Virus record (IMG/VR): IMGVR_UViG_2695420792_000010
Span: 1 to 13,579 of that record
Length of the DNA: 13,579 nt
Direction: 5' to 3' (one strand)
DNA from: a virus
Taxonomy: Duplodnaviria; Heunggongvirae; Uroviricota; Caudoviricetes
Made by a program: the position numbers and the translations under genes. Below are positions 1 through 12,753 of this stretch, piece by piece. Numbering within the stretch: the first letter of the stretch is position 1; each line of letters opens with the position of its first letter. The notes beneath the pieces were generated by a model. The model saw only the letters and a list, made by a program, of their open reading frames with translations, was not told the origin of the DNA and did not search any database.

Positions 1-708
1 CCGTTCGCCGGTTGCCCCGACAGGGCCGGTGTCACCGCGCTCTCCCTTATCACCCTTCGGCCCCTGAGGACCCGCGGGCCCCTGTTCCCCCTTTGGCCCG
101 GGAGGTCCCACCACGGTGGGGATTCTGTTTACGGCTTCTTCCGCCGCTATCCTGCTTTGTTCCGCTGACTGTGCGCTTTCTGCTGACTCCCGGGCTTTTT
201 CTGTTGCGGTCGTTGCATCCCTGGCTGCATTACCGGCTGCACTTTCTGCCGTCTTTCTTGACAATTCAGCTTCTGCTGCACTTTGTGATGACTCACTGGC
301 TTTTTGAGCGGCCGCAGAAGCCGAGGACGAGGACGCATCCTCTGACTGCTTTGCTGAGGCTGCACTTTCTGCCGCCTGCCGGGCTGACTCCGATGCCTCC
401 CCTGCTGAAGTGTCAGCATTTGCAGCGCTCTCTTCTGCCTGACTGGCTGATATGCCGGCATTCCTCGCTGACGTCTCCGCCTCTCCGGCATTCTTCTTCG
501 CCTCCTCAGCGTGACGCGCCACCTCTTCCACCATCAGTTCAAAACGGCGCAGTGCCTCCGGCCGGACGTCATCCTCCGACATGGCACCGAGAAAATCATT
601 CAGCGTACCGGGTTGAGAATCTTCATACACGGTGATGGTCCCGGCATGTGACGGCGGGAATCCCTCCACCAACAGAATAACGCTGTACTGACCGTACTCA
701 ACGTCCAT
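1..708 (-). CDS. Side tail fiber (Stf-like) protein, 5'-truncated fragment; the ORF runs off the window start
   Basis: Minus-strand frame is open from 783 to 1 with no stop (checked codon by codon). Translation MDVEYGQYSVILLVEGFPPSHAGTITVYEDSQPGTLNDFLGAMSEDDVRPEALRRFELMVEEVARHAEEAKK... matches the conserved N-terminal region of lambda-family Stf proteins as I recall them, but the first ~45 Stf residues are absent. Window-proximal part encodes Gly-X-Y collagen-like repeats (GPPGPKGEQGPAGPQGPKGDKGERGDTGPVGATGER). First in-frame ATG is at 708; an in-frame stop lies upstream at 784-786. Confidence 0.7.
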   Translation of the reverse strand, partial: MDVEYGQYSVILLVEGFPPSHAGTITVYEDSQPGTLNDFLGAMSEDDVRPEALRRFELMVEEVARHAEEAKKNAGEAETSARNAGISASQAEESAANADTSAGEASESARQAAESAASAKQSEDASSSSASAAAQKASESSQSAAEAELSRKTAESAAGNAARDATTATEKARESAESAQSAEQSRIAAEEAVNRIPTVVGPPGPKGEQGPAGPQGPKGDKGERGDTGPVGATGER

Positions 709-773
709 GCTGTAACGCCCGGCTTCATCCGGATTTACTGAGGGCAAAAATACAGAATCCGGTGTCAATAAGC

Positions 774-1676
774 TTACCTTCGGTTAGCGTATGTATTTTT
801 CCAGTAATACGTCGTGTCACCACAAATCCACGGCACATCTGCAGCACTGCCACCATGGCACTGCGCGTTAAACACGGAGAGGTCAGCACGAAACTGTGTC
901 AGCATGGCTGTAAACAGCGCAGGTTGCTGTGCGTGGGTGGCGGCGCTCATGTCAAACTCTCCCTGCATCCAGCACACCGCCAGCAACACATTTTTCGGGT
1001 TCTTCTGTAATGCAGCTTTAGTGCGCGCAATCAGGTCCTGATATAACGGTTTACCCACACCCCAGCGCGCCGAATCCTGGCTGGCCCCCGTGTCCGCACT
1101 GAATGTCCCCTCAGCGCCCTGGGTGAATGCAGAACCACCACGACAGCATGGTACCAGCAGGATCCCCGCGTTATTCGGGATATACGGAAGCAGTTTTTTG
1201 GCAATATGTAAGCCCTGGCCGACACAGCCGTACTGCCCTTTGCTCAGGTCTGCCTTCGGATGATTCAGCGTACTCATATCCTGCACATCATGCAGGCAGT
1301 GGTCGGCCGGAATAATATCGTTATATCTGCAGGCAGCCCCACCCGGCGTCACTGTACTGCGGCGCGCCAGCTGTTTAATGCGCGGATCCGGAGCATCGTA
1401 TGAATCCGGCAGCGGAAGCCCTTCACCGTAAGCCATGGCATTGGACTGCCCGGCCAGTACGATGACGTAGTACCAATCCGGCTCAGTTGCACCACTGACC
1501 ACCACATCACCTTCTGCTGTAATCGCCTGCATCAGAGTATAAGGGGTTATGGCCACCGGACTACCAAACGGCTGCCAGCCCTCTTTCAGTTTATGTGTCA
1601 GCTTTTCCGCAAGATCTGATGGCGACGCCGCCCTGACAACATCATAGTGTTTAAATTCCATGGTTCTTTCCACCAT
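774..1676 (-). CDS. Prophage NanS-p-like sialate O-acetylesterase (DUF1737-like N-terminus plus SASA/GDSL-like esterase domain), short relative to typical NanS-p
   Basis: 300-aa ORF. N-terminus MEFKHYDVVRAASPSDLAEKLTHKLKEGWQPFG resembles the DUF1737 domain of prophage NanS-p; VIVLAGQSNAMAYGEG carries the GQSN esterase motif. ATG at 1676 has no Shine-Dalgarno; the ATG at 1661 is preceded by GGTGGAAAG and may be the true start. Stop TAA at 774-776. The family's C-terminal domain appears to be missing (recollection of family architecture). Confidence 0.7.
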   Translation of the reverse strand: MVERTMEFKHYDVVRAASPSDLAEKLTHKLKEGWQPFGSPVAITPYTLMQAITAEGDVVVSGATEPDWYYVIVLAGQSNAMAYGEGLPLPDSYDAPDPRIKQLARRSTVTPGGAACRYNDIIPADHCLHDVQDMSTLNHPKADLSKGQYGCVGQGLHIAKKLLPYIPNNAGILLVPCCRGGSAFTQGAEGTFSADTGASQDSARWGVGKPLYQDLIARTKAALQKNPKNVLLAVCWMQGEFDMSAATHAQQPALFTAMLTQFRADLSVFNAQCHGGSAADVPWICGDTTYYWKNTYANRR

Positions 1677-1920
1677 CTGAAAAATAATTCTTTAAAATAC
1701 CTGACATGTAATACAGAAAAAACACAAAACCATACCTTAAATAAAAACCTGATTATCAAGCAGATATGCATGGATAAACTACAAGACGAGATATAAACCA
1801 CCCTGTATTTAAATAAACAATAAACAACATCAGAAAAATAATTCTGCTCTATGGTTTAATTCAAAAATATCATTTATACTTTTCAGAACATCACCAGCAA
1901 GGCATAAACAAGGAAAGTAA

Positions 1921-2256
1921 ATGAAGTGGATTGTGATTGATACAGTTATCCAGCCATCATGCGGAATATCTTTTTCAGTCATATGGAGTAAAATAAAATT
2001 AATAATCTGGTATCAATCGGATGCTTTCTTACCTCCTGAAAGTATATTTACACTGACTCACACAGGTATCATGCTCAATAACAAAGTGCTACCTGTAACC
2101 ATTTACAACATAGTACCATTCAATAAAACATTCTGGAATTTAATCAAAAACAGCCAGGAATGCCCTACAAATACAGATAACGTATTGAATGAATGCTTTA
2201 ATAACCGTTGCACTCTGCAAATATGTCCTTATGGGCTAAAACAACAAAATCCATAA
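1921..2256 (+). CDS. Hypothetical AT-rich ORF (111 aa), no recognisable family
   Basis: ATG preceded by AAGGAAAG Shine-Dalgarno-like sequence 4 nt upstream; AT-rich codon usage; Ile/Asn-rich product with 6 Cys. Could be chance translation of AT-rich DNA. Confidence 0.2.
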
Positions 2257-2280
2257 GGAGTTTACTCACATCTGACAAAA

Positions 2281-2311
2281 TCAATATAAACAGCCCCTCC
2301 GGAGAGGGGCT
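2281..2311. terminator. GC-rich hairpin (8-bp perfect stem AGCCCCTC / GAGGGGCT, loop CGGA); U-run follows on the minus strand
   Basis: Stem 2292-2299 pairs with 2304-2311. On the minus strand the hairpin is followed by TTTATATTGATTTT; on the plus strand there is no U-run. Lies 36 nt after the stop of the 1921..2256 ORF. Confidence 0.35.
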
Positions 2312-2703
2312 GGAGAGTGGCGCTATGTGCCATTGCATGGTGCCGAGTGCCTCCCGGTGAATTCAGTACCAGCACCTGAATCCGCGATTATCCCATATAC
2401 CTACTCGCTGATTGCCCCTCCGCACAGGGGGATTCACCATGCCAGTTTCTTTTAACAAACTCCCCGCAAACCAGACAACAGTCAACCGCCTGAATTGTGA
2501 AGTATTTAAAAATTTCTCCCGCTAACTGATACCCGGCTAACAGTCTGGCGTTTTCTTTTTCAGCAACGGGAAAGCAACAACCACCACACCCGCCACCAGC
2601 ACACCGTCAGCCAGCACTGACATTATCCGGCTGCTGCAATGCCATTCACAAAAACAGTAAGCAATCACTTTTTACCGTAACAGGTGATAATCCAGATATG
2701 TAT

Positions 2704-3167: not shown

Positions 3168-3244
3168 TGGCGCGCTGTACTGGATTCGAACCAGTGACCG
3201 ATTGCTTAGAAGGCAATTGCTCTGTCCGGCTGAGCTAACAACGC
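3168..3244 (-). tRNA. tRNA-Arg, anticodon UCU (reads AGA), phage-borne
   Basis: Reverse complement GCGTTGTTAGCTCAGCCGGACAGAGCAATTGCCTTCTAAGCAATCGGTCACTGGTTCGAATCCAGTACAGCGCGCCA. 7-bp acceptor stem (one G-U pair), anticodon stem ATTGC/GCAAT with loop CTTCTAA (anticodon TCT), T-arm GGTTCGAATCC, encoded CCA. Confidence 0.85.
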
Positions 3245-3345: not shown

Positions 3346-3421
3346 TGGTGGCCCTTGCTGGATTTGAACCAGCGACCTGGCGATTATGAGTCGCTCGCTC
3401 TCACCACTGAGCTAAAGGGCC
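3346..3421 (-). tRNA. tRNA with CAU anticodon (tRNA-Ile2 lysidine type or tRNA-Met), phage-borne
   Basis: Reverse complement GGCCCTTTAGCTCAGTGGTGAGAGCGAGCGACTCATAATCGCCAGGTCGCTGGTTCAAATCCAGCAAGGGCCACCA. Perfect 7-bp acceptor stem GGCCCTT/AAGGGCC, anticodon loop CTCATAA, T-arm GGTTCAAATCC, encoded CCA. Resembles E. coli ileX-type tRNA (recollection). Confidence 0.85.
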
Positions 3422-3564: not shown

Positions 3565-4386
3565 TTACCTAGTTACCTTTTTTAACTGCCGCTCAGCCCA
3601 TGCTTCTTCAATATCAAACCGGGTCACCAGCGCATCATAAAATTTCTTAACTGTTTTTTCCCATGACGCGCGTGTTATCTGGTTTGTCACCTCGCATATA
3701 GCATTAAATGCCTCCGTTGATGGTAGTCTTTCATAGCCACGACCACCACAACGCTGGCAGTCTCTGATAACAGGCATACCACGTTTTACCGACTCTTCAC
3801 GATGAATGGCGACACCACGCCCACGGCAATCCTTACAGCCGGTGGAAACCTCACCCTTTCCGCCACACTCCGGACAGGCAACTTTTACCACCTCCCTGAC
3901 TTTTTTCCATTCTTCCCAGTAAGACGGATACACACCTTTCGTACACTTTGCCCATACCGGCGGCTTACCATCCGGATACTGGACCTTGTTTGTAAAAACT
4001 ATGCTTTCAATAAATTTTTCCCCATAGCAACAAGGGCACTGCTTTTTACTCGCTGCGCTGCGGGCATAATCCTCAAAAGCGTACGAAGCCATAATGCGCA
4101 TCACTACCGGTTTTATTTCTGCCGGAAGTTTTCTCAACGCCGCCACACGATCGCACCGACTGAGTGCATAATCTGCCAGTAATTCTGTTGCCCGCGCCCT
4201 GTCATTCATACTGATGCCCATTTTCCCCAGGAACGCAGAAAAACCCATCTCAGCCCGATTCTGTGTCATGCCCTGCGCGGCCATCACATCAGTGATACTC
4301 AGCGCATCTTTTGACGTTGAGGCCGATGCATCGGTCAGGCCAGGGGATTTTGGGGAGTAGTATTTCGGTAAATCTTCCAGTTTCAT
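3565..4386 (-). CDS. Late-gene antitermination protein Q (phage 82/Qin QuuQ-type)
   Basis: 273-aa ORF with ATG start. N-terminus LPKYYSPKSPGLTDASASTSKDALSITDVMAAQGM resembles the QuuQ-type Q family as recalled. Multiple CxxC motifs (CPCC, CPECGGKG, CKDCRGRG, CQRCGGRG) consistent with Zn-binding. Position just upstream of the late promoter, terminator and tRNAs fits. Confidence 0.75.
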   Translation of the reverse strand: MKLEDLPKYYSPKSPGLTDASASTSKDALSITDVMAAQGMTQNRAEMGFSAFLGKMGISMNDRARATELLADYALSRCDRVAALRKLPAEIKPVVMRIMASYAFEDYARSAASKKQCPCCYGEKFIESIVFTNKVQYPDGKPPVWAKCTKGVYPSYWEEWKKVREVVKVACPECGGKGEVSTGCKDCRGRGVAIHREESVKRGMPVIRDCQRCGGRGYERLPSTEAFNAICEVTNQITRASWEKTVKKFYDALVTRFDIEEAWAERQLKKVTR

Positions 4387-6557: not shown

Positions 6558-6713
6558 TTACTCCTCAGGTTCGTAAGCTGTGAAGACAGCGACCTCCGTC
6601 TGGCCGGTTCGGATTCGTACCTCGCAGAGGTCTTTCCTCGTTACCAGTGCCGTCACTATGACGGTTAAACAGATGACGATAAGGGCGATTAACATCGCCT
6701 TTTGCTGCTTCAT
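6558..6713 (-). CDS. hok: Hok/Gef-family type I toxin (HokD/RelF-like small membrane toxin)
   Basis: 51-aa product MKQQKAMLIALIVICLTVIVTALVTRKDLCEVRIRTGQTEVAVFTAYEPEE matches the Hok/Gef family and, as I recall, HokD (RelF) almost exactly. AAGGAGA Shine-Dalgarno 8 nt upstream. An in-frame upstream ATG at 6770 would add 19 codons (MSHKCRLASYVPKGKEKQA). Confidence 0.85.
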   Translation of the reverse strand: MKQQKAMLIALIVICLTVIVTALVTRKDLCEVRIRTGQTEVAVFTAYEPEE

Positions 6714-7270
6714 AGCCTGCTTCTCCTTGCCTTTCGGCACGTAAGAGGCTAACCTACATTTGTGAGACATAGATTGGGCCTCAGATTAATGTTAAGCGTC
6801 TTGCAGGACGCGTAATGTTAACTGGGGCTTTTCTCTATCTGCCTTTTGGTGTTCATGCCTGAGGCAGATAGCCTCAAGCACCCGCAGCAATTCTAACTAT
6901 CCAATAGATCAATGCCAACTTCTTTTCCTGCAACATCTCTCATCATAAGTGACCAAAATTCATCCAATCAGCACAAAAGAAACATTTAAAGCGTGAATGC
7001 TACCGAACGTTCATTTCAATTACATCGTTTTGATTTTTAACAGTTTTTACCTCAACAAATCAAATGGCATTAGCATTCATCATGGAAGAAAGACTGATAA
7101 AAATGATCATTTTCAATGACTTATGATCACACCGGGTATTGCCAAGTCATTCCTTTTACGCCAGGATACCCACAAGTGAGTAGTCGAGGAGAGTTTGCCA
7201 ATTTTTGCGATATAAATTTCAATGTCCGAAGAACCATTAATTGTTAATTGATTCTGTATAAGGTATTAAC

Positions 7271-8368
7271 ATGACAATTTCATATATTCCTATTCTGAAA
7301 GCGAAACGTTCTGAGTTATCAGCTTTATCGCAGCTATTCATTGAAAAGAAATCAAAAATTTTGCCATTACTCGAAATTGAACCAGTGCCAATTGACCCTG
7401 ATTCAGGTATTGCCTTAAAGAGTTATAACGAGACTCTTATAGAGTTCGGAAAGAAAGTCTCAAAATCTTGCTCAGATATGCAAGGTGTTTATATTGATGG
7501 ATTATTAATTGAAGAGCATTTTATTTCTCCTGAAGATCATTACCCTATAATAAATGCGGTTAATCAAGTTAGAGATATGGGGATAAGAGTTATTCCTGTC
7601 AGTTCACCAACTCGCCCATCTAACTATAAAAGAGCGATTGATGAATTAATGCAGAATGAAATATGCTTGAGATTAACCACGTTAGATCTGGTTAACCCAC
7701 AATTAATAACGCATTACATTAATCATCTGGGAATTCCTTTATCAAATATTGATATAATTATTGACTTAAGAGATGAGTTAACCGAGGATAAACTTAATTC
7801 CGGCGAACTATATACTTTGGCAATGGGATTGATAAACAATCTGGCGCACCTCAATGAATACAGAAAAGTGATTCTTTCTGGGGGTTCATTTCCTACAGAT
7901 CTCAGTGATATTTCTGTTGGTCTATATTCTCAACCTCGAATCGAGTGGATTTTATGGCAGAGTTTAATGAATAGAAAAGAACTTGCCAGAAATGTGATTT
8001 ATAGTGATTATGGAGTACAGCACCCCGACTTTAATAGGCTTTCGACGCGATTCCCTAGCGTATCTGCCAGCGTCAGATACTCTGGAGATAATGACTTTTG
8101 GGTATTTCGAGGAAGAGTAGCTAATCGCTTTGGTTATGAACAATATGGTAAACATAGTGAGGATATTCTTGCTCATCGAGAATATTCAGGGCCTACATTC
8201 TGTGCGGGAGATAGAGACATAGAATATTATGCAAACGAGTATCAAGCCTACAAAGCCAATCCCTCTGGTAACTATAAATTTGGTAGCCCAGAGGTATGGC
8301 GTAGGATTGGGCAAAACCATCACATAACTAAGGTTGTTGAGCAACTCGCCACTCTTTACGGGCTTTAA
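7271..8368 (+). CDS. Uncharacterised 365-aa protein, first gene of the AT-rich convergent cassette (possibly the database family annotated as 'beta protein / sce7725')
   Basis: Clean ATG at 7271 with AAGG 9 nt upstream; stop TAA 8366-8368; uninterrupted 365 codons; strongly AT-rich, unlike the flanking phage genes. The N-terminal pattern MTISYIPILKAKRSELSAL reminds me of the 'beta protein' family, but this is unverified. Confidence 0.7.
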   Translation: MTISYIPILKAKRSELSALSQLFIEKKSKILPLLEIEPVPIDPDSGIALKSYNETLIEFGKKVSKSCSDMQGVYIDGLLIEEHFISPEDHYPIINAVNQVRDMGIRVIPVSSPTRPSNYKRAIDELMQNEICLRLTTLDLVNPQLITHYINHLGIPLSNIDIIIDLRDELTEDKLNSGELYTLAMGLINNLAHLNEYRKVILSGGSFPTDLSDISVGLYSQPRIEWILWQSLMNRKELARNVIYSDYGVQHPDFNRLSTRFPSVSASVRYSGDNDFWVFRGRVANRFGYEQYGKHSEDILAHREYSGPTFCAGDRDIEYYANEYQAYKANPSGNYKFGSPEVWRRIGQNHHITKVVEQLATLYGL

Positions 8369-8906
8369 GTTTAACTCGAACAGCTTCACGAAGCTCGCCA
8401 ACATCCATACTATTGGCGAGTTTTGACCATAAGACGCGTTTAGGTTTATTTTTCAAATTCTGTAGCTCCCCTACATCACTTAATAGGGAAAGCAATTCAT
8501 CTTTCCAAAGAAGCATTGTTAAGGAAAGTTTGTCCACTTGTGGATTCAACTTGCTAGTTCGAATTGTTTTTAAATGGATACCTTGCCGTGCACCTTGCGT
8601 AACTTGCTTTATCCCCCACCATGATGGAACTATGCTTAAAGCATCATAAAGATGGCAATCAGAGACAACCAAAGTTACTTTATCCATCACTGATGAGTAA
8701 TGTTGCACCTGCGCTGGTAATCTGAGCAAGTTATCACTCTTGCTCTTCAACTCATAACCATGTATAAGCCCATTGATCACTGCTATATCAGCTCTGCTAG
8801 CCCCTAGATTCATCGTAAACTCATCAATGATTAGGGTGTCAGGATCTTTATGATGATCTCTCAGAATCTTGGCATGCACAGCCTTTCTTACATCAATGTC
8901 TCTCAT
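8328..8906 (-). CDS. Uncharacterised 192-aa protein with N-terminal PD-(D/E)xK nuclease-like motif (possibly 'sce7726 family'), second gene of the AT-rich cassette
   Basis: ATG at 8906, stop TAG at 8328-8330. Motif LIIDEF...RADIAVINGLIHGYELKS fits the restriction-endonuclease fold pattern (D40 ... E52-x-K54, preceded by D28/E29). AT-rich. Weak Shine-Dalgarno. Confidence 0.7.
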   Translation of the reverse strand: MRDIDVRKAVHAKILRDHHKDPDTLIIDEFTMNLGASRADIAVINGLIHGYELKSKSDNLLRLPAQVQHYSSVMDKVTLVVSDCHLYDALSIVPSWWGIKQVTQGARQGIHLKTIRTSKLNPQVDKLSLTMLLWKDELLSLLSDVGELQNLKNKPKRVLWSKLANSMDVGELREAVRVKLKARKEWRVAQQP

Positions 8907-12114: not shown

Positions 12115-12753
12115 ATGAGCAAGCAAACAATATCTGAACGCATAACCCAACGTATGCATGCGCTAAACCTGAAAGGCAAAGACCTTGTCAATGCCACTGG
12201 CGCATCAAAAGGCTCCGTAAGTCAATGGATGAACGGTGGAGGAGCGCCGTCCTCGCGTTACATAAGTTCACTGGCAAAAATATTGAAAGTAAACGAAAAT
12301 TGGCTTCTTAATGGAGGAGAGTTAAATACAGGTGATTCGCTTGATCTATCTTTACCGCCGATAAAAACGGTTCCGCTACTATCACTTCAGCAGGCAGCAA
12401 GCTGGAGTGATTATATGAAAAATTCCTCAATAACCTCTTGTGTGCAGCTTGTCGGAGAAATCCCGGCCAATACCTTTGCAGTTGTTCTAGAGAGTGACAG
12501 TATGTCAACATCTGGTGGGGGAGTTTCCATCCCAAATGGTTCAACAGTTTTTGTTGATCCCGATCGAACCGTACAACCAGGAAATATTGTCCTTGCCTTA
12601 CCCAAAGGGACCACAACACCTGTCATTCGTAAACTGGAGATAGAAGGGCCGGATATTCTTTTAGTCCCCACGAATCCTCGCTACCCTTCAATTATGCTGG
12701 ATGATCTATCTTGCATATTGGGCGTATGCTTTAAAATTCAACAAGATATTTAA
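12115..12753 (+). CDS. CI-like phage repressor (N-terminal XRE-type HTH plus C-terminal S24 LexA-like autopeptidase domain)
   Basis: 212 aa. HTH region KGKDLVNATGASKGSVSQWMNGG; S24 motifs ESDSMS (Ser nucleophile) and VIRKL (Lys). Divergent from the cro-like gene. No Shine-Dalgarno before the ATG (possibly leaderless, as for lambda cI from pRM). Confidence 0.85.
   Translation: MSKQTISERITQRMHALNLKGKDLVNATGASKGSVSQWMNGGGAPSSRYISSLAKILKVNENWLLNGGELNTGDSLDLSLPPIKTVPLLSLQQAASWSDYMKNSSITSCVQLVGEIPANTFAVVLESDSMSTSGGGVSIPNGSTVFVDPDRTVQPGNIVLALPKGTTTPVIRKLEIEGPDILLVPTNPRYPSIMLDDLSCILGVCFKIQQDI

Follow-up and report, generated by a model that had tools for sequence, protein, structure and literature searches.

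The defective lambdoid prophages of Escherichia coli K-12 include DLP12, Rac, and Qin. Among Sp1 to Sp18 of O157:H7 Sakai, most of the lambdoid prophages carry deletions, insertion sequence (IS) insertions, or frameshifts, and a disrupted nu1 gene is one of the recorded defects (Asadulghani et al. 2009, PMC2669165). The NanS-p proteins of Stx phages are three-domain proteins of 636 to 657 amino acids, and block IV of the SGNH fold in NanS and NanS-p reads RSSH, RASH, or RPTH (PMC10462455).

The locus described here comes from an E. coli draft assembly of short-read style (GCA_001284685.2) and was analyzed as a window of 13,579 nucleotides. As in Sp1 to Sp18, DLP12, Rac, and Qin, the late functions are deleted while immunity, replication, Q, and cargo genes are kept, and truncated genes mark the breakpoints. 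The locus differs from these prophages in that it has no IS element, in that the late region was removed almost wholly rather than piecemeal, and in that its pair of junctions, with a 52-nt island of the terminase small-subunit gene (terS) between them, was found in no other sequence searched. We consider it highly probable that a compound internal deletion in an E. coli lambdoid prophage left its scar at window positions 735 to 786 and their borders. The event is ordinary lambdoid prophage decay and reveals no new system.

Three gene remnants collinear with an intact prophage

The scar and its flanks comprise the following features.

785 to 1661, minus strand: 5′ fragment (codons 1 to about 293-294) of a NanS-p-type SASA esterase gene (alignment, Pfam)
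774 to 784, minus strand: new C-terminal end of the esterase, N-R-R-stop, read from the terS remnant out of frame (translation, three-way alignment)
782 to 786, minus strand: junction 1, esterase to terS, with the extended imperfect microhomology TA(A/C)CC (base-by-base three-way alignment)
735 to 786, minus strand: terminase small-subunit (nu1-type) gene remnant, 52 nt, gene nucleotides 266 to 317 (100% match)
735 to 746, minus strand: junction 2, terS to stf, with a 12-nt imperfect microhomology, 10/12 (three-way alignment)
1 to 746, minus strand: 5′-truncated gene for a lambda Stf-type side tail fiber with collagen-like repeats (alignment, Pfam)

All of the relevant genes (the 5′ part of the esterase, the terS piece, and stf) lie on the minus strand, and in the alignment the three pieces follow the intact prophage of NZ_CP045827 (L005) in both order and orientation. 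Window positions 1 to 746 correspond to the stf gene of L005, 735 to 786 to its terS gene (100% identity), and 782 to 2400 to the 5′ half of its esterase gene together with IraM (99.6%). These pieces are 5.43 kb and 20.28 kb apart in L005 and 0 nt apart in the window. The 5.43-kb interval of L005 holds the 3′ half of the esterase gene, the holin, lysozyme, and Rz-type lysis genes, cos, and the 5′ end of terS, as well as one gene each of the PerC and YnfO families; this interval also includes the lambda cos core GGGCGGCGACCT, which was not found in the window. The 20.28-kb interval holds the rest of terS, terL, and the genes for the portal, protease, decoration protein, and major capsid protein, followed by tail genes, the tape measure gene, J, and lom. 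About 26 kb of lysis, packaging, head, and tail genes has been lost, the deletion sizes being estimates from a mosaic relative whose stf is only 92.6% identical; no single database prophage was at least 99% identical across all three pieces.

The genes at the breakpoints are truncated at about codon 294 of 616 (esterase), reduced to nucleotides 266 to 317 (terS), and retained from about codon 38 to 42 (stf). Holin, endolysin, Rz-type lysis, terminase, head, and tail genes and cos are all absent from the prophage. The initial annotation, which had described a large internal deletion fusing a short esterase gene to a tail fiber gene, was correct that lysis, packaging, head, and tail genes are missing between the two, where intact relatives have them, and that both flanks are truncated. 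Its account was incomplete in that alignment to intact prophages maps two junctions, at 782 to 786 and 735 to 746, rather than one.

The esterase is a gene fragment

The esterase open reading frame spans 774 to 1676, or 774 to 1661 if the start codon of the source annotation is taken, and its stop codon lies at 774 to 776 on the minus strand, as previously noted. At the DNA level, the stub and the 616-amino-acid gene of NZ_CP045827 are 99.6% identical up to window position 785/782 and unrelated past it, and homology with 616-amino-acid esterases in general breaks off at the same point, codon 293 to 294. Pfam assigns DUF1737, SASA, and DUF6645 to the 616-amino-acid relative and only DUF1737 (PF08410; E = 4.5e-16, full profile) and SASA to the stub, from which the lectin-like C-terminal domain DUF6645 (PF20350) is absent. 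DUF1737 has recently been reported to be the capsid-binding domain of phi24B gp84. Reference structures are PDB 6YP6 (the NanS-p C-terminal domain) and PDB 3PT5 (chromosomal NanS), and the alignment to the latter covers residues 59 to 379 of the full-length protein. The stub keeps the GQSN serine block and the SGNH blocks upstream of the break, but its catalytic domain is short of the final ~85 residues; block IV (RPTH, residues 356 to 359, with His359 in the 616-amino-acid relative) lies past the break at 294 and is missing. With neither the block IV histidine nor the lectin-like domain left, the stub is probably inactive.

The stub has DUF1737 and the serine block GQSN in common with the NanS-p sialate O-acetylesterases of 933W and phi24B (gp84), and its gene occupies the canonical site downstream of Q, but it is a fragment of such a gene and not a member of a short subfamily. 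The initial annotation had recognized the NanS-p type and called the gene short; the gene is truncated rather than naturally short. Nor does the stub's protein cluster give evidence of a short esterase subfamily: nearly all of its members that were read are named "partial," as fits contig-end fragments. An exact-protein look-up recorded the 295-amino-acid stub on one contig only and returned no match for the 300-amino-acid open reading frame that begins at the first ATG. The remnant carries 4 differences in 877 nt, with no stop and no frameshift.

The terS island and the two joins

The 35 to 52 nt between the two genes are no anonymous spacer but a piece of terS, which the initial annotation missed. 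A single clean deletion with 35 nt of anonymous filler was accordingly rejected: a blastn search with 55 nt identified the terS fragment between the esterase and stf genes, and the single-deletion model was dropped. The remnant is 100% identical to genes named "terminase small subunit" in many E. coli genomes, maps to positions 16052-16103 of L001 and 32562-32613 of L005, and has the orientation and order found in intact prophages, with at least 737 to 784 being terS specific. The match is not due to chance, with an E value of 2e-21 for the 52 nt against one 40-kb prophage and of 7e-16 for a 49-nt part against 28 Gb. The fragment has no start and no useful frame.

At junction 1, the TA at 786 to 785 is common to both parents. 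At junction 2, aligned against both the L002 and the L003 allele of stf, TGCCCTCAGTAA of terS faces TGGCCTCAGAAA of stf, combined as TG(C/G)CCTCAG(T/A)AA, and the crossover falls between 737 and 734. The very short, imperfect microhomologies at both joins fit illegitimate recombination rather than a site-specific, IS-mediated, or homologous process. IS-mediated recombination was rejected as no IS sequence is present, and site-specific (Pin-type) recombination as the invertible 3′ end of stf is distant from the joins. The joins resemble microhomology-mediated illegitimate deletions in E. coli in that both fall at imperfect repeats of 2 to 12 nt and here too no IS element, att-like site, or long homology is found at them, although the mechanism in this case is read from the junction sequence alone. 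No Rfam family matched at the junction, and a consensus scan of 700 to 790 found no junction-created promoter or terminator.

The truncated side tail fiber gene

The Stf frame reads ...R*PKVSLLTPDSVFLPSVNPDEAGRYSMDVEYGQYSV..., with an in-frame stop at 784 to 786, as the initial annotation had stated, and from 783 it meets no further stop up to the window end. It had been placed 10 nt beyond the esterase stop, whereas its opening lies 7 nt upstream of that stop, so that the frame overlaps the final codons of the esterase. True homology to Stf starts only at 746 to 734, at about codon 38 to 42, and the gene runs past the window edge. The fragment is 99.2 to 99.5% identical to intact genes named "prophage tail fiber N-terminal domain-containing protein," with 3 differences, all synonymous, in 733 nt and no stop or frameshift. 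It covers positions 39 to 133 of the 134 in the prophage tail fiber N-terminal profile (PF08400), of which the intact relative covers 1 to 133, and 38 positions of the N-terminal domain have therefore been lost. There is also a Collagen family match; the repeats begin at the window edge, and the rest of stf lies past the contig end. In relatives, tfa and type III effector genes are found downstream of stf.

The fragment resembles lambda Stf-type fibers in its near identity to intact fiber genes from codon ~42 on, its open frame, and its collagen repeats. It differs from them in that the first 37 to 41 codons (earlier put at ~45), the native start, and the ribosome-binding site are gone and that upstream genes for J, the tail, and assembly partners are lacking. 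A survey of start codons returned two sites.

766 to 780, minus strand: candidate reinitiation site, AAGG(T) at 780 to 776 and TTG at 768 to 766 (start-codon survey, inferred only)
706 to 708, minus strand: internal ATG, the Met of ...RYSMDVEY... (start-codon survey)

The TTG lies 5 nt past the esterase stop, with AAGG 7 nt upstream of it, and no Shine-Dalgarno-like sequence was seen upstream of the ATG in the same survey, so that TTG 768 would appear to be the better candidate start. The ATG from which the initial annotation had the fiber expressed does exist, but expression from it, while possible, is unsupported. A fiber made from either start would be missing part of the N-terminal domain, and the truncated gene may at best serve as a recombination reservoir for co-resident lambdoid prophages.

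Retained genes

Profile searches identified two genes on the far side of the esterase stub.

1921 to 2256, plus strand: IraM-family anti-adapter gene (NCBIfam NF007393, 161.8 bits, cut-off 121)
3565 to 4386, minus strand: late antiterminator Q (Pfam PF03589, E = 2.3e-54)

The IraM gene, which the RefSeq annotation of relatives also records, is cargo that immediately precedes the esterase gene and is encoded on the other strand. The window also encodes Cro, a cI-type repressor of the S24 family, and a protein of the YdaT family; a replication-organiser-like gene, RusA, and genes for DUF977 and DUF968; and two tRNAs, hok/sok, and a candidate defence gene pair in addition to Q and IraM. These findings bear out the earlier description of a defective prophage that keeps regulatory, replication, and cargo genes. 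The gene order in the window is collinear with that of prophages at mtfA/tRNA-Ser. The cI-type repressor protein is widespread (4,698 blocks).

Origin of the scar and alternative explanations

The ancestral prophage would have carried its late genes in the order Q, tRNAs, IraM, NanS-p-type esterase, holin/lysozyme/Rz, cos, terS, terL, portal, head, tail, J, lom, and stf. One loss would have joined esterase codon ~294 to terS, removing everything up to terS nucleotide 265 (about 5.4 kb in the intact relative), and another would have joined terS to stf, removing the stretch from terS nucleotide 318 to stf codon ~38-41 (about 20.3 kb) and leaving the 52-nt terS island in between. RecA-independent illegitimate recombination may have acted through slipped mispairing, microhomology-mediated end joining, or a replication template switch. 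There are two junctions, so the scar reflects either two successive deletions or one complex event.

Template-switch events typically leave short templated islands flanked by microhomology, and the scar may have formed in one step, the 52 nt of terS being a templated insertion made by template switching or filler-DNA end joining. The microhomology at both joins is in keeping with this origin, as is the count of genomes carrying only one of the two junctions (0 of 5,426 complete E. coli genomes). However, an island that is collinear and in the same orientation is equally explained by two simple deletions, and missing intermediates are weak evidence where an event is private to a strain. We regard formation in a single step as possible but rather unlikely.

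The junction was found only in its source assembly. It is covered in 0 of the 5,426 complete E. coli genomes, and the initial annotation's alternative of a gene order native to an intact phage family finds no example there; its other alternative, a full-length esterase, is at odds with the 294 of 616 codons that remain. The exact junction patterns had no match among GTDB representatives, in IMG/VR, or in JGI metagenomes, and no other carriers were found among GenBank phages. Because the remnants are nearly substitution free and the junction occurs in one assembly only, the deletion is probably recent and private to the strain.

A locus seen in one draft assembly of short-read style could also be an artifact, a contig chimeric for esterase, terS, and stf reads from different prophages of the same strain. 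The contig stops within the repetitive stf gene, 735 nt from the junction, and repeats are plentiful, with up to 16 to 26 copies of these modules per E. coli genome. Yet the sequence shared at the joins (2 to 5 nt and 10/12 nt) is far below the k-mer or overlap length of an assembler, the order and orientation match a real prophage as expected for a deletion and not for random chimerism, and the 52-nt island would need two independent misjoins inside one read length, all of which makes misassembly highly improbable. That the element is instead a phage satellite or compact island in which lysis and morphogenesis genes were never present, with a genuinely short esterase, has next to no likelihood and is refuted by the truncation points: structural-gene-less satellites do exist in E. 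coli and the early region looks complete, but both flanking genes are cut within conserved domains where near-identical full-length genes run on, a startless terS fragment lies between them, the lambda-type cos core is absent, and, unlike in a PICI-like satellite, remnants of three late genes are present in an arrangement seen in no other genome searched.

Expected consequences for the prophage and its host

Following the compound deletion, the element would no longer be able to lyse its host, form particles, or be packaged from cos, and it would persist as a cryptic prophage with immunity, replication, Q, tRNA, IraM, hok/sok, and candidate defence genes. Late transcription driven by Q would now enter the esterase stub and the truncated stf gene. 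Because the lysis and morphogenesis genes are gone and no terminator-like site is predicted at the junction, the locus might conceivably have been rewired, with Q-dependent transcription running through the stub into stf and downstream genes and with the stub or the fiber binding particles of a co-resident phage, although we consider this very unlikely. If true, cargo expression would be SOS/Q inducible without host lysis, and either the DUF1737-bearing stub or a restarted, N-terminally truncated Stf might interact with co-resident lambdoid phage particles.

The main value of the finding lies in correct annotation. The 295/300-amino-acid "YjhS/SASA esterase" and the tail fiber open reading frame should be treated as pseudogene fragments and the element scored as a nonlytic, nonpackageable cryptic prophage, and the junction can be used as a strain-specific marker. 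The 52-nt terS island offers a clean natural case in which lethal late functions were lost by illegitimate recombination while the cargo (IraM, tRNAs, hok/sok, and the defence-candidate pair) was kept.

Two deletion junctions flank a terminase remnant

The window corresponds to contig CYEH01000028.1 (68.7 kb) of the Escherichia coli draft assembly GCA_001284685.2 from position 3 onward, with identity over 11,661 comparable bases. The esterase gene, the remnant of the terminase small-subunit gene (terS), and the side tail fiber gene (stf) all lie on the minus strand, and transcription therefore runs from high to low coordinates.

When window 1-2400 was compared by megablast with 5,426 complete E. 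coli genomes, the matches (98.6-99.6% identity) all ended at window 782, and no single record covered at least 80% of the query. A 441-nt junction-centered query behaved in the same way. Intact fiber genes were 99.2-99.5% identical to the stf side, only from window 746/743 leftwards, and the interval between these end points (55-nt blastn) is 100% identical to "terminase small subunit" genes in many genomes, so the sequence between the two genes is a piece of terS. Base-by-base alignment and blastn against one intact prophage, that of NZ_CP045827 (L005), placed the breakpoints within a three-piece map.

Pieces of the window matched to L005
Window 782-2400 (L005 38046-39664): 5' half of the esterase gene, IraM gene and flanks, 99.6% identity
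Window 735-786 (L005 32562-32613), minus strand: terS nt 266-317, 100% identity
Window 1-746 (L005 11533-12278), minus strand: stf, 92.6% identity to this allele and 99.5% to others

The order and orientation of all three pieces match L005. No single database prophage at least 99% identical to all three was found, which implies that the actual ancestor was some other mosaic and that the gap sizes taken from the L005 annotation, 5.43 kb and 20.28 kb, are estimates. The first gap removes the 3' 970 nt of the esterase gene and the first 265 nt of terS, together with genes for a class II holin, a lysozyme, an Rz-type lysis protein, and one member each of the PerC and YnfO families. It also includes the lambda cohesive-end core GGGCGGCGACCT (L005 33094-33105), which was not found in the window. 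The second gap accounts for the remainder of terS, for terL, and for the genes of the head-tail joining protein, portal, S49 protease, decoration protein, major capsid protein, and FI; every tail gene is also gone (tape measure, L, K, I, and J among them), as are a sodC cargo gene, lom, and the 5' ~37-41 codons of stf. The initial annotation had proposed a single deletion junction at 700-790, where a short esterase gene abuts an stf lacking its 5' end; that observation is confirmed, and its deletion interpretation is supported by the collinear map once refined to two junctions.

Junction sequences and origin of the scar

At the esterase-to-terS join, the parental sequences are ACGCTA/CCCAG (esterase) and GGTA/ACCGAAGG (terS); TA (786-785) is common to both, and TA(A/C)CC forms an imperfect 5-nt microhomology. 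The terS-to-stf join brings together terS (TGCCCTCAGTAA/GCTGG) and stf (TGGCCTCAGAAA/ATCCGG in the L003 allele), which match at 10 of 12 positions over 746-735. The crossover is bounded by the T at 737, which is specific to terS, and by the base at 734, the first that is specific to stf. Neither junction carries an IS sequence, an att-like or invertase site, or long homology. RecA-independent illegitimate recombination predicts short-microhomology joins of this kind, lacking IS, att-like sites, and long homology. The scar (both junctions and the 52-nt terS remnant) may have arisen through slipped mispairing, microhomology-mediated end joining, or template switching, either as two successive deletions or as one complex event; no genome with one junction alone was found among the 5,426. 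A chimeric contig could in principle produce such joins, but this is unlikely, as the sequence shared at the joins is far shorter than the overlap any assembler works with, the three pieces keep the order of a real prophage, and the contig would have to contain two false joins only 52 nt apart. The truncated remnants refute a native, satellite-like architecture, as do the missing cos and the restriction of this arrangement to a single assembly among the collections searched.

A 54-aa open reading frame (ORF) (window 725-889, minus strand) starts inside the esterase gene and passes through the terS remnant in the frame native to terS (...TEGKLIDTGFCIFALSK...); it is almost certainly an accidental product of the join and no gene.

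The truncated esterase and fiber genes

The stop of the esterase-like ORF at 774-776 was correctly placed; the ORF spans 774-1676, or 774-1661 from the source-annotation start. Its product ends at residue ~294 plus N-R-R contributed by terS, compared with 616 aa in a full-length relative, which carries the Pfam domains DUF1737, SASA, and DUF6645; the stub has DUF1737 and SASA only. In alignments to solved structures, the full-length esterase matches NanS (3pt5) over residues 59-379 and the C-terminal domain of NanS-p (6yp6) over residues 421-613. The RPTH histidine (residue 359 of the relative) aligns with the RSSH histidine of NanS; SGNH block IV is RSSH, RASH, or RPTH, and Stx-phage NanS-p are three-domain proteins of 636-657 aa (PMC10462455). 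Ending where it does, the stub is without block IV and the lectin-like domain, from which we infer that it is inactive. A short esterase subfamily was considered and rejected, the stub being a gene fragment that lacks both elements. Among the cluster members read, nearly all others were named "partial," fitting fragments at contig ends.

The fiber frame does contain the reported stop at 784-786 (reading R, stop, PKVSLLTPDSVFLPSVNPDEAGRYSMDVEYGQYSV) and is open from there to the window edge; it overlaps the end of the esterase ORF and does not begin 10 nt beyond it. The fragment matches the prophage tail fiber N-terminal family (Pfam) at profile positions 39-133, compared with 1-133 in an intact relative, so that 38 of 134 positions of this domain are missing. 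The N terminus is thus absent as initially described, with a loss of about 37-41 codons in place of ~45. A carboxypeptidase-regulatory-like domain, matched below Pfam's threshold, spans residues 5-82 of the intact fiber, and the cut therefore probably falls within a folded unit. Expression of the truncated fiber is possible from one of three candidate starts, including the internal ATG noted earlier.

Candidate fiber starts
768-766, minus strand: TTG, with AAGG 7 nt upstream, 5 nt past the esterase stop
747-745, minus strand: TTG, from a start-codon survey
708-706, minus strand: ATG, without a Shine-Dalgarno-like sequence

The contig end (window 1-3) falls within the collagen-like repeat part of stf, which suggests that the source strain carries more near-identical stf copies that broke the assembly here and, with them, other lambdoid prophages. 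The stf segment has up to 16 matching places in E. coli genomes.

Retained genes

Outside these remnants, the window is an early and late-control region of normal lambdoid type, and the claim that regulatory, replication, and cargo genes are kept holds for this visible part.

Retained features
12115-12753, plus strand: cI-type S24 repressor
Early region: Cro; YdaT family protein
Also present: replication-organizer-like gene, DUF977, DUF968, RusA
8328-8906, minus strand: sce7726-family gene (NF033832, 191 bits; PADLOC model "cll")
7271-8368, plus strand: "Beta protein" gene (PF14350; PADLOC PD-Lambda-2_C, E = 6.5e-41)
6558-6883, minus strand: hok/sok type I toxin-antitoxin (Hok/Gef ORF 6558-6770; sok RNA match 6708-6883, 121.7 bits)
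3565-4386, minus strand: Q
3168-3244 and 3346-3421, minus strand: tRNA-Arg(tct) and CAT-anticodon tRNA, downstream of Q (ARAGORN)
2282-2471, minus strand: STnc100 sRNA match (Rfam, full-length, 129 bits; gathering score, 47)
1921-2256, plus strand: IraM-family anti-adapter gene (NF007393, 161.8 bits)

The CAT-anticodon tRNA is called Met by ARAGORN and tRNA-Ile in relatives by RefSeq; it is therefore probably a lysidine-modified Ile2. The STnc100 match occupies a late-leader position, following the tRNAs and preceding IraM and the esterase gene, and ends at a strong terminator-like hairpin (2312-2291). The IraM gene, on the opposite strand, is flanked by the Q/tRNA region on one side and the esterase gene on the other, as in many STEC prophages. 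The convergent, slightly overlapping "Beta protein" and sce7726 genes occupy a variable slot flanked by the DUF977 gene and hok. In related prophages this slot holds RES, FRG, a restriction-modification system, ParDE, or SMODS+SLATT, and hence looks like a defense/moron hotspot. Relatives of this prophage type adjoin mtfA and tRNA-Ser.

Distribution, age, and significance

The junction was found in none of the 5,426 complete E. coli genomes, nor in GenBank phages, so this gene order is not native as far as these collections extend; the exact junction patterns were likewise not found in GTDB species representatives, IMG/VR, or JGI metagenomes, and the exact 295-aa stub is on record on a single contig. 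Both remnants are almost undecayed: the esterase differs at 4 of 877 nt (3 synonymous) and the fiber at 3 of 733 nt, all synonymous, and neither carries a stop or frameshift. Collectively, confinement to one contig and the undecayed remnants point to a recent, strain-private event.

The deletion could bring stf, and cargo lying farther downstream beyond the visible sequence, under direct control of Q-dependent late transcription in the absence of lysis. The stub, or a re-started fiber, might also interact with particles of co-resident phages, since DUF1737 was reported in a 2026 preprint as the capsid-binding domain of phi24B gp84. This reading as a whole is improbable. Specific to this prophage are the breakpoint pair and the tidy terS island of 52 nt. 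Classical decayed lambdoid prophages include DLP12, Rac, and Qin of K-12. Most lambdoid prophages of O157 Sakai are affected by deletions, frameshifts, and IS insertions, and a disrupted nu1 gene is among the cases (PMC2669165). The scar resembles these cases of well-described prophage decay in E. coli and is an ordinary, further example of it.
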